Shown: piece after piece, positions 9,363 through 10,579 of the stretch
How the letters are laid out: each line of letters starts with the position of its first letter
Position numbering within the stretch: position 1 is the stretch's first letter
Assembly (NCBI GenBank): GCA_027451965.1
Contig: DAIDHJ010000001.1
Location: forward strand, 490,963 to 548,072
DNA length: 57,110 bases
Source: Candidatus Adlerbacteria bacterium
Lineage (GTDB): Bacteria; Patescibacteriota; Minisyncoccia; Phycocordibacterales; SBAW01
Direction: 5' to 3'
Program-made: the position numbers and the translations under genes
Notes under the pieces: generated by a model
Databases searched by the model: none
What the model was told of the DNA's origin: nothing
Seen by the model: only the letters and a program-made list of their open reading frames with translations

Positions 9363-9388
9363 GAGTTATTTACAAATTATTCTAAATT

Positions 9389-10528
9389 TTAATACAAAGA
9401 TTCAACAAATTCTCCAAACCCATCTCCATTAAAAATCTTAAATCTATCATAATCGCCTTTAAAAAAATTCATCATTCTTTCAAATCCGACTTCTTTTTTT
9501 GTCTCCTTAAGTATATTTTGAATAAACTGATTAGTATTTACTAACATTAGTTCTTTTTTTGAAAAATCAATTTTTTTCAATTCTTCCATAAAAGCATCAT
9601 CTCCAAAATTATATCCAATCGCTACTACCATACTTGATTTTTCAATCTCTTCTTTAGCTCGATTGATCATTTTTTCAAAAAAAGGATTTTCCGGTCTAAT
9701 AGTTGCATGAATTGGTATAAGCATGAGAGGAAAATCATATATCGAAATCTCTTCATTCGTAAGTTTCCCATCAGAATCTATTTTATGCTCCACTCTATGA
9801 GAAGGATATTCTGTGAGGTTGGGAGGTACAATCTTGAATCCATTTTTGTTTCTATCTGACATCATTTCTGAAAAAAGAAAATAATTACTCAATGATTCAG
9901 GATCATTCCATAGACAAGGTTTAATATATTGATGGCGAAAATTAATTCCACCATGGACTTTAATAATCGAAGGTGAAAAATTCAGATAGTCTTTTAAACT
10001 TCCAAAAGAATCTCGCTTAGGATCATTATCAGCTTCTAGATAAGACTTTTCTAAAAGAGTATCGTAATTAAAAGATAAGAAAGACCATGATTTTGATCCA
10101 TGTAATTCCCACATTAAATTGATTAGATCTTTATAGCTATTCGGTTCTGAAACGAATTTATTTGAAGCAGAAATAAATACATCTTCTAGATAAGAAAGCA
10201 GATCTCCAAAAAGTTTATCTTCAGGTTTTCCTGAATATCTTTTGCTTAAATAAATTTCTAAATCATTTTGATGATTTTTTATCTCTTTTATTATGTGAGA
10301 TTGCCTTGATTTTATTGAAGGATGTCTTGCTATTACCTCTTTAACAATCAAATTTTCTTCATTAAATAAATTTTCTACTGTAGGTGGAGAATAGCGATTG
10401 TCTTTACTGTAACCATAAGAAGCACCAGCACCGAAAATAAAACAAATGCTTCCATTTGTTTGATTTAGTAAATCCCTTATTTCTCTCTTGGTGTCTGATT
10501 TTGATAACAAAAAAGGATCTAAATTCAT
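9389..10528 (-). CDS. SIR2-like domain protein (SIR2_2 / ThsA-type NADase fold), 379 aa, in an AT-rich island
   Basis: Four motifs occur in the order seen in ThsA-type SIR2 domains: CFIFGAGASYG (Rossmann GAGxS), LSFNYDTLLEK (NYD), IIKVHGGINF (catalytic His) and MVVAIGYNFGDDAF (compare FVGFSFTDPN). G+C is far lower than in the flanks. Confidence 0.75.
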   Translation of the reverse strand: MNLDPFLLSKSDTKREIRDLLNQTNGSICFIFGAGASYGYSKDNRYSPPTVENLFNEENLIVKEVIARHPSIKSRQSHIIKEIKNHQNDLEIYLSKRYSGKPEDKLFGDLLSYLEDVFISASNKFVSEPNSYKDLINLMWELHGSKSWSFLSFNYDTLLEKSYLEADNDPKRDSFGSLKDYLNFSPSIIKVHGGINFRHQYIKPCLWNDPESLSNYFLFSEMMSDRNKNGFKIVPPNLTEYPSHRVEHKIDSDGKLTNEEISIYDFPLMLIPIHATIRPENPFFEKMINRAKEEIEKSSMVVAIGYNFGDDAFMEELKKIDFSKKELMLVNTNQFIQNILKETKKEVGFERMMNFFKGDYDRFKIFNGDGFGEFVESLY

Positions 10529-10534
10529 GAGAAA

Positions 10535-10540
10535 ATTATA
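10535..10540 (-). promoter_or_regulatory. Perfect TATAAT -10 box 6 nt upstream of the SIR2-like ATG (putative leaderless promoter)
   Basis: The minus strand reads GAGTATAATTTTCTC-ATG(10528). There is no SD. Confidence 0.45.
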
Positions 10541-10579
10541 CTCTTAAATGAAGATTTCACTACCATTTTAAAGCATTTT

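Follow-up and report, generated by a model that had tools for sequence, protein, structure and literature searches.

The SIR2 subunit of the SIR2-HerA system is inactive without HerA; one such subunit, PsSIR2, is auto-inhibited by its small domain, becomes active once that domain is deleted, and has N163, D165 and H212 as its putative catalytic residues (PMC11472057). The DSR proteins are described in the literature as much larger and as having a separate phage-protein-binding region. The lack of a zinc-binding cysteine tetrad is a stated hallmark of the SIRim clade, a Rossmann sheet of seven or more beta-strands and a gene neighbourhood enriched in defence genes are criteria for it, with a 12-fold enrichment of such genes reported for the clade, and human FAM118 proteins have been assigned to it (bioRxiv 10.1101/2024.09.18.613514), as has AbiH (bioRxiv 10.1101/2024.09.18.613514; PMC13064643). 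With regard to the Candidate Phyla Radiation (CPR, or Patescibacteria), few recognisable defence systems have been reported per genome, and the authors suspected that others go undetected (PMC12259885). Here we describe a gene from a 57,110-nt stretch of a Candidatus Adlerbacteria bacterium contig (DAIDHJ010000001.1, positions 490,963 to 548,072; hereafter the window), which encodes a 379-aa SIR2-like protein and is the only gene of an AT-rich island between the housekeeping genes rnr and smc. We consider it reasonably probable that this is a recently acquired, stand-alone SIR2 gene of the SIRim branch that works as a one-gene, NAD+-depleting abortive-infection module, the defence role being the uncertain step of the overall explanation.

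The AT-rich block (positions 9363-10579) measures 1,217 bp and has a G+C content of 28.5%, compared with 52.6% for rnr and smc together and 50.6% for the whole window. The 1,140-bp stretch over the SIR2 gene has the lowest G+C in the 57 kb (z = -6.4 versus other windows of the same size); the gene itself is at 0.29 compared with 0.52 for host genes, and its G+C at third codon positions (GC3) is 0.187, compared with 0.61 in rnr and 0.59 in smc. An earlier note on this DNA, made from the letters alone, had described the composition as foreign and as changing abruptly at the rnr and smc stop codons. Both descriptions hold: block and flanks differ as given above, and change-points computed in 20-nt steps lie within ~20 nt of both stops. 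The G+C values that the note had counted by hand were also reproduced (23.3% at 9421-9480, 28.3% at 10081-10140, 45.0% at 9301-9360 and 51.7% at 10621-10680). The block contains one open reading frame (ORF; 9389-10528, minus strand); smc precedes it on that strand, and rnr faces it in convergent orientation. The spacers measure 26 nt on the rnr-stop side and 51 nt on the smc-stop side, and therefore leave no space for a second gene. An Rfam scan of the island returned nothing, and no terminator was found between the convergent rnr and SIR2 genes.

Composition and the comparison with related genomes make it near certain that the island is a horizontally acquired single gene. The order trmD-KH-rpsP-rnr followed by convergent smc-rnc is conserved in Paceibacteria-type genomes, and a SIR2-family gene between rnr and smc was found in none of 126 relatives (62 junctions from species-representative genomes and 64 from metagenomes), which is the absence that the note's proposal of acquisition implied. 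In the nearest relatives (L089 and L090; identity of 62% in RNase R, 63% in SMC and 75% in RNase III), the gap between rnr and smc measures 315 bp and holds an 84-aa ORF. We note that this small ORF, downstream of smc and of host-like G+C, stands at the place of the SIR2 gene (L090 2865-3119, minus strand; also in the tail of L003). No relative closer to the host than 62% RNase R identity was found in either collection; at this distance, synteny shows the absence of the gene and cannot date its insertion. The fully un-ameliorated composition nonetheless argues for a recent acquisition. Across the 126 relatives (L004-L168), the stop-to-stop gap ranges from 1 bp to ~4 kb and its cargo is unrelated from case to case, including PGA_cap, Peptidase_S11 (D-Ala-D-Ala carboxypeptidases), GNATs, transporters and one rve integrase. 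The junction is therefore a conserved, insertion-tolerant site; a defence hotspot was rejected, as the cargo in relatives does not consist of defence genes. At the island, neither an integrase nor a tRNA was found, and target-site duplications, inverted repeats and flanking repeats at its edges were limited to short chance matches.

The protein itself carries all four motifs that the earlier note had quoted for the single 379-aa ORF, namely FIFGAGASYG, FNYDTLLE, KVHGG and VAIGYNFGDDAF, at residues 30, 153, 190 and 302. All four fall in invariant or near-invariant columns of the 38-member family alignment, and G33-A-G-A-S37, N154, D156, K190, H192, G193, G305, Y306 and D310 are invariant in 38/38 (Table 1). 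Of the two Pfam profiles that the note had proposed as a check, SIR2_2 (PF13289) reached 24.2 bits on the window protein, just below its cut-off of 24.5 (E 4e-5, residues 150-196 only), and SIR2 (PF02146) gave no match at E<=1. Across the family the SIR2_2 signal is firmer, with matches at E<=0.01 in all 38 aligned members (best 9e-9) and a precomputed PF13289 assignment in 26/42 homologues. The PADLOC model named SIR2 (PDLC04093) matched residues 14-181 only (E 1.3e-8). Searches of NCBIfam and PHROGs with the window protein gave no match, and a PDB search with the single sequence returned noise only.

Structural comparison makes it near certain that the fold is that of SIR2. An AlphaFold2 model built on the family alignment, with a predicted local distance difference test score (pLDDT) of 90 and a predicted template-modelling score (pTM) of 0.91, has a Rossmann-type SIR2 fold with an inserted helical small domain. 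Foldseek against the PDB returned 88 matches at E<=1e-3, and the best 50 are all SIR2 or sirtuin structures. The top 25 are SIR2 subunits of SIR2-HerA (E 2e-8 to 3e-5), followed by canonical sirtuins; the best of them, from E. coli and Paenibacillus, were found at E 2e-8 and probability 1.0, with a template-modelling (TM) score of ~0.5 and ~14% identity. ThsA and DSR2 are absent from the top 50. The note had proposed a fold of the SIR2_2 or ThsA type: the SIR2_2-type fold, with its conserved NAD-binding loop, Asn, Asp and His, was recovered, and so were SIR2-fold matches in Foldseek, but the nearest structure is the SIR2 of SIR2-HerA and not ThsA. The family profile aligns to both PsSIR2 (8w9l) and ThsA (8wc0) over the NYD and HG motifs, with N154, D156 and H192 falling on PsSIR2 N163, D165 and H212. 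The window protein has only two cysteines (C29 and C205), so that no sirtuin-type zinc-binding tetrad is possible, and DSSP assigned 10 strands over the whole model, with extra hairpins at 193-204 and 245-269. Column entropy is 0.9-1.4 bits in residues 28-59, 147-166, 187-196, 265-281 and 299-318, and rises to 2.5-2.9 bits in the N-terminal helix (1-27) and in a hypervariable insert (197-264), where it is the highest in the protein. In the model, this insert consists of long beta hairpins with a local pLDDT minimum of 66.

Table 1. Features of the SIR2 island and of its two flanking genes, in window positions.
Feature	Position	Strand	Basis
AT-rich single-gene island, rnr stop to smc stop	9363..10579	.	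G+C 0.285 vs 0.526 in flanks
CDS, 379-aa stand-alone protein of SIR2_2/SIRim type; stop codon 9389-9391	9389..10528	-	ORF, Pfam, PADLOC, AlphaFold2, Foldseek
G33-A-G-A-S37, Rossmann NAD-binding loop	10418..10432	-	Invariant in 38/38; conserved also in superfamily alignment A4
N154-Y-D156, putative catalytic Asn and Asp	10061..10069	-	Invariant; aligned to N163 and D165 of PsSIR2
K190-V-H192-G193, putative catalytic His	9950..9961	-	H192 aligned to PsSIR2 H212 and to the ThsA KMHGD motif
G305-Y-N-F-G-D310, C-terminal Rossmann motif	9599..9616	-	G305, Y306 and D310 invariant; aligned to PsSIR2 CGYSYKD
Residues 197-264, hypervariable beta-hairpin insert, candidate trigger-sensing surface	9737..9940	-	Column entropy; hairpins in the model
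AT-rich 51-nt spacer, smc stop to SIR2 ATG, with TATAAT at 10535-10540 and without Shine-Dalgarno	10529..10579	-	Sequence
rnr (RNase R), left flank, convergent with the island gene	7410..9362	+	Pfam RNB E 9e-106; trmD-KH-rpsP-rnr synteny in relatives
smc, short housekeeping gene (727 aa), right flank, directly upstream of the SIR2 gene	10580..12763	-	Pfam SMC_N E 1e-65; G+C 0.533

In the mechanism that we propose, NAD+ would be bound in the Rossmann pocket formed with G33AGAS37 and G305YNFGD310 and would be cleaved by N154, D156 and H192. By analogy with PsSIR2, the resting enzyme may be held inactive by its own helical small domain (~residues 60-146), until a phage-derived trigger would switch it on via the insert 197-264, the N-terminal helix or both. 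Depletion of NAD+ would then arrest or kill the infected cell, that is, bring about abortive infection, and no partner gene would be required. NADase activity, auto-inhibition, the trigger with its sensor, and an anti-phage role are thus what we infer for the window protein. It is speculation that the insert is the recognition surface, put forward because an unchanging enzyme whose surface diversifies would be expected of an arms-race sensor. The most reduced form of this proposal, a minimal SIR2 immunity in which a ~370-aa protein would sense phage directly through its insert, relieve its own auto-inhibition and deplete NAD+ without a partner, is one that we advance tentatively and regard as rather doubtful.

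The distribution of the gene is sparse. Among 5.8 billion protein clusters the family comprises 42 relatives, all at most 50% identical to the window protein, with full-length members of 352-415 aa; the two that carry organism names are both from Patescibacteria/Paceibacteria. We examined eight family contexts (the window and seven others with recoverable DNA) in addition to three contexts of superfamily neighbours. Each of the seven other members lies in a different neighbourhood, the gene stands alone in 8/8 family contexts, and no neighbour gene is common to them. These settings include the interval between rpsI and grpE (L083, a single-gene low-GC insertion at 0.338 vs 0.563), a site beside glutaminase and asparaginase genes, and one after smpB, a GIY-YIG gene and tmRNA. 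In 8/8 contexts the G+C of the gene is 5-24 points below that of its host. One copy directly adjoins a tmRNA at its 3' end, and another lies 370 nt from a tRNA-Gln; tmRNA and tRNA genes are classic sites of island integration. The tmRNA copy (P0023, L087 6695-8248) lies directly at the tmRNA 3' end, with smpB and a small GIY-YIG ORF alongside. The start annotated for P0023 overlaps the tmRNA gene, so that the 37-aa extension at its N-terminus probably reflects a wrongly called start.

A further homologue (P0024, L002 1-17128, within a 930-kb CPR-type contig) belongs to what is putatively an integrative or conjugative element, which also carries a serine recombinase, TraG/TrwB-like coupling proteins, an HTH-Peptidase_M78 regulator and a PtuA-like ATPase (E 2.6e-17 to PtuA in the PDB) that has a 242-aa partner. 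A NUDIX partner downstream of one homologue (P0008) was considered and rejected, as the equivalent gene beside another (P0010) is unrelated. No copies of the family were found in IMG/VR, GenBank phages or BFVD, where only generic viral sirtuins were matched, and a phage origin or an anti-defence reading is therefore unsupported. As far as its sequences and contexts indicate, the family has the profile of a mobile accessory gene.

The family is surrounded by a larger set of stand-alone proteins of ~330-370 aa. When 1.84 billion cluster representatives were searched exhaustively with the family profile, the search returned 32 at E<=1e-30, which are the family proper, 459 at E<=1e-10 and 1,964 at E<=1e-3, with a step in score separating the family from the larger set. 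A profile of 54 superfamily members (A4) aligned to that of the family in hhalign (329 columns, probability 100%, E 4e-51), and the two have a common motif skeleton of GAGAS, PP, FNYDTLLE, K.HG, P....P.H and IG..D. They differ in that identity is only ~22% and that A4 lacks the N-terminal helix (alignments begin at query residue ~29). The nearest solved relative of the superfamily profile is again the SIR2 of SIR2-HerA (8w9l, E 8.8e-7). Ten sampled members, all uncharacterised metagenomic proteins, gave weak SIR2_2, PADLOC-SIR2 or Aga_SIR2 matches only; an assignment of these neighbours to AbiH was rejected, the weak matches being to SIR2_2. Based on these comparisons, the window family nests inside a larger, uncharacterised stand-alone SIR2_2 superfamily.

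Of the three superfamily contexts, one gene stands alone in a CPR-like housekeeping region, one follows a PIN-domain gene and one lies in a defence island (L170 474-7393). The island holds a distant SIR2_2 protein (P0067), a ThsB-type TIR, an 8xMP protein and an MmeI-like type IIG restriction-modification enzyme, and the P0067 gene lies between the TIR gene, 5 kb away, and the restriction-modification gene. A 172-aa ORF overlaps the stop codon of the P0067 gene by 4 nt and may encode a partner in that subfamily. Support for a SIRim defence neighbourhood is anecdotal, consisting of the PtuA-like ATPase in L002 and the ThsB_TIR and restriction-modification genes in L170.

Turning to possible partners in the window, we scanned its 41 ORFs of >=100 aa (a 4,545-aa ORF excluded) and found no HerA, TIR, Argonaute, STAND or SLOG partner among them, nor was HerA found in the eight family and three neighbour contexts. 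The claim of the earlier note that the gene stands without such a neighbour is therefore upheld, and extends from the window to the 10 homologue and neighbour contexts. The PADLOC run that the note had suggested gave, beyond SIR2, generic ATPase models only, all of them on the SMC protein (mad3 at 206 bits, and weaker matches to LmuB, GajA, AriA, PtuA and AbiLi). SMC proteins of this clade (window and L004-L168) are ~730-770 aa long with a short coiled coil, and are likely to be a false-positive trap for defence-finder pipelines in CPR genomes. The remaining window consists of housekeeping genes (RNase R, DnaE, GyrB, S2, transketolase, GAPDH, RF and others). Two further features were observed in it. 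A milder low-GC patch at 4000-5300 (0.42-0.45) with two ~120-aa ORFs, 4290-4655 (+) and 4915-5277 (-), may be another small acquired segment. The giant 4,545-aa ORF (43441-57078, minus strand) has a G+C of 0.474, slightly under the ~0.52 of the remaining window.

With regard to transcription, the TATAAT box that the earlier note had assigned to the gene is present 6 nt before the ATG, but as evidence for a promoter of its own it is weak. Chance alone would place such a box anywhere in the 51-nt AT-rich spacer with an expectation of ~0.1, and at the observed spacing with ~0.01. A promoter scan did not call it and found a poor -35 element, and the box is not conserved upstream of homologues. Its spacing to the ATG and the lack of a Shine-Dalgarno sequence would be compatible with a leaderless transcript; transcription could equally well reach the gene by read-through from smc.

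Several observations weigh against a one-gene defence module. The SIR2_2 score of the window protein lies 0.3 bits under the gathering cut-off, and its PADLOC SIR2 matches are partial and weak. The cargo at the junction in relatives is of non-defence type (cell-wall, capsule, transporter and GNAT genes, and one insertion-sequence-type integrase), integration scars were not found at the island, and most family contexts are housekeeping neighbourhoods rather than defence islands. Since the SIR2 of SIR2-HerA is inactive without HerA, an enzyme without a partner would need a different activation route, and the partner search reached 57 kb of the 548-kb contig. The last two points are also what favours an orphan effector, that is, a real NAD+-depleting immune effector whose partner is encoded elsewhere in the genome and might be a HerA-like ATPase, a sensor, or a TIR or another generator of signals; the dependence of its closest structural relatives on HerA is documented (PMC11472057), and L170 offers a possible parallel, where a ThsB-type TIR gene lies at a distance of 5 kb and the SIR2 stop is overlapped by another ORF. 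We nevertheless consider this unlikely, given that the window has no HerA, TIR or Argonaute match, that HerA is present in 0/8 family and 0/3 neighbour contexts, that adjacent genes are unrelated between contexts, and that a gene which enters unrelated genomes by itself would probably not depend on a partner encoded at a distance. A pairing closer at hand, in which the 727-aa SMC would take the sensor role of LmuB and the SIR2 protein that of effector, is suggested by the gap of only 51 nt between smc and the SIR2 gene that follows it in the same direction, by a match of SMC to PADLOC LmuB over its whole length (E 3.8e-18), and by the mention of SIR2-containing Lamassu systems in the literature. 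This smc, however, has host composition (0.533 vs 0.29), lies beside rnc in 126 relatives whose rnr-smc junction holds no SIR2 gene, and encodes a protein with a Pfam SMC_N match at E 1e-65 compared with only 64 bits for LmuB; moreover, 0/7 other family members adjoin an SMC-like gene. Synteny and composition effectively refute the Lamassu pairing, to which we attach next to no probability.

Other explanations would keep the acquired gene and change its role. A selfish toxin or addiction gene, or one directed against plasmids or other mobile elements, could spread as mobile cargo and persist by its toxicity instead of by any benefit to the host, and it would fit the patchy distribution, the foreign composition in every host, and the copies at tmRNA/tRNA sites and in an integrative, conjugative-like element. 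We judge such a conflict module to be decidedly unlikely: there is no conserved neighbour of antitoxin size, the 26- and 51-nt spacers leave no space for an antitoxin, and all SIRim members with an established role are anti-phage (bioRxiv 10.1101/2024.09.18.613514). A housekeeping or regulatory sirtuin-like enzyme (deacylase or ADP-ribosyltransferase) that is AT-rich by chance might be suspected from the presence of Sir2Af2, Sir2Tm, SIRT5 and CobB among the Foldseek matches (TM <=0.58, normalised by target length). Yet PF02146 is unmatched at E<=1, two cysteines provide no zinc tetrad for binding an acyl-lysine substrate, the gene is absent at this locus in 126 relatives and its family is extremely rare, and a GC3 of 0.19 vs 0.60 is incompatible with long residence in the genome; we see very little chance of this. 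It is equally hard to credit that the island is an inert passenger, either non-functional acquired DNA or a mis-assembly. The contig is metagenome-assembled, the jump in composition is extreme and the exact protein occurs on one contig only, but the ORF reaches the full family length without loss of any invariant residue, the insertion falls precisely between two genes and is bordered left and right by host sequence within a single contig, and a similar single-gene low-GC insertion recurs independently between rpsI and grpE.

If the one-gene NAD+-depleting module is real, it would show how small such an immune module can be (~370 aa and partnerless), and would offer a tractable model for the gating of a SIR2 NADase that lacks HerA, SLOG, STAND and Argonaute domains. 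It would also add a sizeable family to the databases of defence finders, which now miss it (below the Pfam cut-off and partial in PADLOC). Should even the minimal form of SIR2 immunity hold, the family and its superfamily (~460-2,000 clusters) would constitute a large one-gene defence class that defence finders do not recognise, and this would be especially relevant for ultra-small CPR bacteria, given their probable reliance on metabolites scavenged from elsewhere. If the gene is not a defence gene, the locus would still illustrate cleanly how one gene is inserted horizontally between conserved housekeeping genes in a reduced genome.

When compared with known systems, the window protein has most in common with the SIR2 effectors of SIR2-HerA, Thoeris, DSR and SPARSA, and it misses the defining architecture of each. 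The SIR2 of SIR2-HerA (Nezha; PsSIR2 8w9l/8wld, E. coli 8sub/8sxx) is its best match in structure and in PDB profile comparison, and resembles it in its length of ~380 aa, its single SIR2 domain, its helical small domain and its aligned putative catalytic residues. It differs in that no HerA gene accompanies the family in the window or elsewhere in the 11 contexts, in that the window family has a 68-residue hypervariable beta insert and an N-terminal helix of its own, and in that the PADLOC SIR2 models, which we take to belong to the SIR2+HerA system, match the window protein partially and not over its full length. ThsA has the same NYD...HG motif pattern (8wc0 aligned over FNYDT...KMHG), and both it and DSR1/DSR2 are NAD+-depleting SIR2 enzymes, a chemistry that the window protein would share. 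ThsA, however, has a C-terminal, signal-binding domain of SLOG/Macro type and needs signalling by ThsB (TIR), whereas the window protein has a single domain and the window has no TIR match. DSR1 and DSR2 are proteins of ~1,000 aa with a long C-terminal sensor region; the window protein, at 379 aa, is much shorter, as the earlier note had pointed out, and no DSR model was among the PADLOC matches. The window protein has neither the APAZ domain nor the Argonaute partner of SPARSA. Canonical sirtuin deacylases have a PF02146 match and a zinc-ribbon Cys4 module, and the window protein has neither.

The other comparison is with AbiH (Lactococcus; PF14253), a defence protein encoded by a single gene, predicted to have a SIR2-like fold and assigned to the SIRim clade. 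AbiH is 346 aa long, and its Pfam model has 260 positions. AbiH itself is associated with mobile elements (integrative and conjugative elements), and its mechanism is unknown. On the window protein the AbiH model reached 18.5 bits against a cut-off of 30.9 (E 0.0024), with weak matches in 4/38 family members (E<=0.01), and with a score below the cut-off the window protein is not a member of the AbiH family. The suggestion in the earlier note of an undescribed minimal type is thus correct in that the family is uncharacterised, and goes too far in that single-gene SIR2-like abortive-infection proteins of ~350 aa are already known as a concept (AbiH, SIRim). The novelty is accordingly partial: single-gene SIRim proteins have been recognised before, and the surrounding superfamily is large, though unnamed. 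In concept, AbiH, as a single-gene SIR2-like abortive-infection protein, is the closest precedent for the gene described here.

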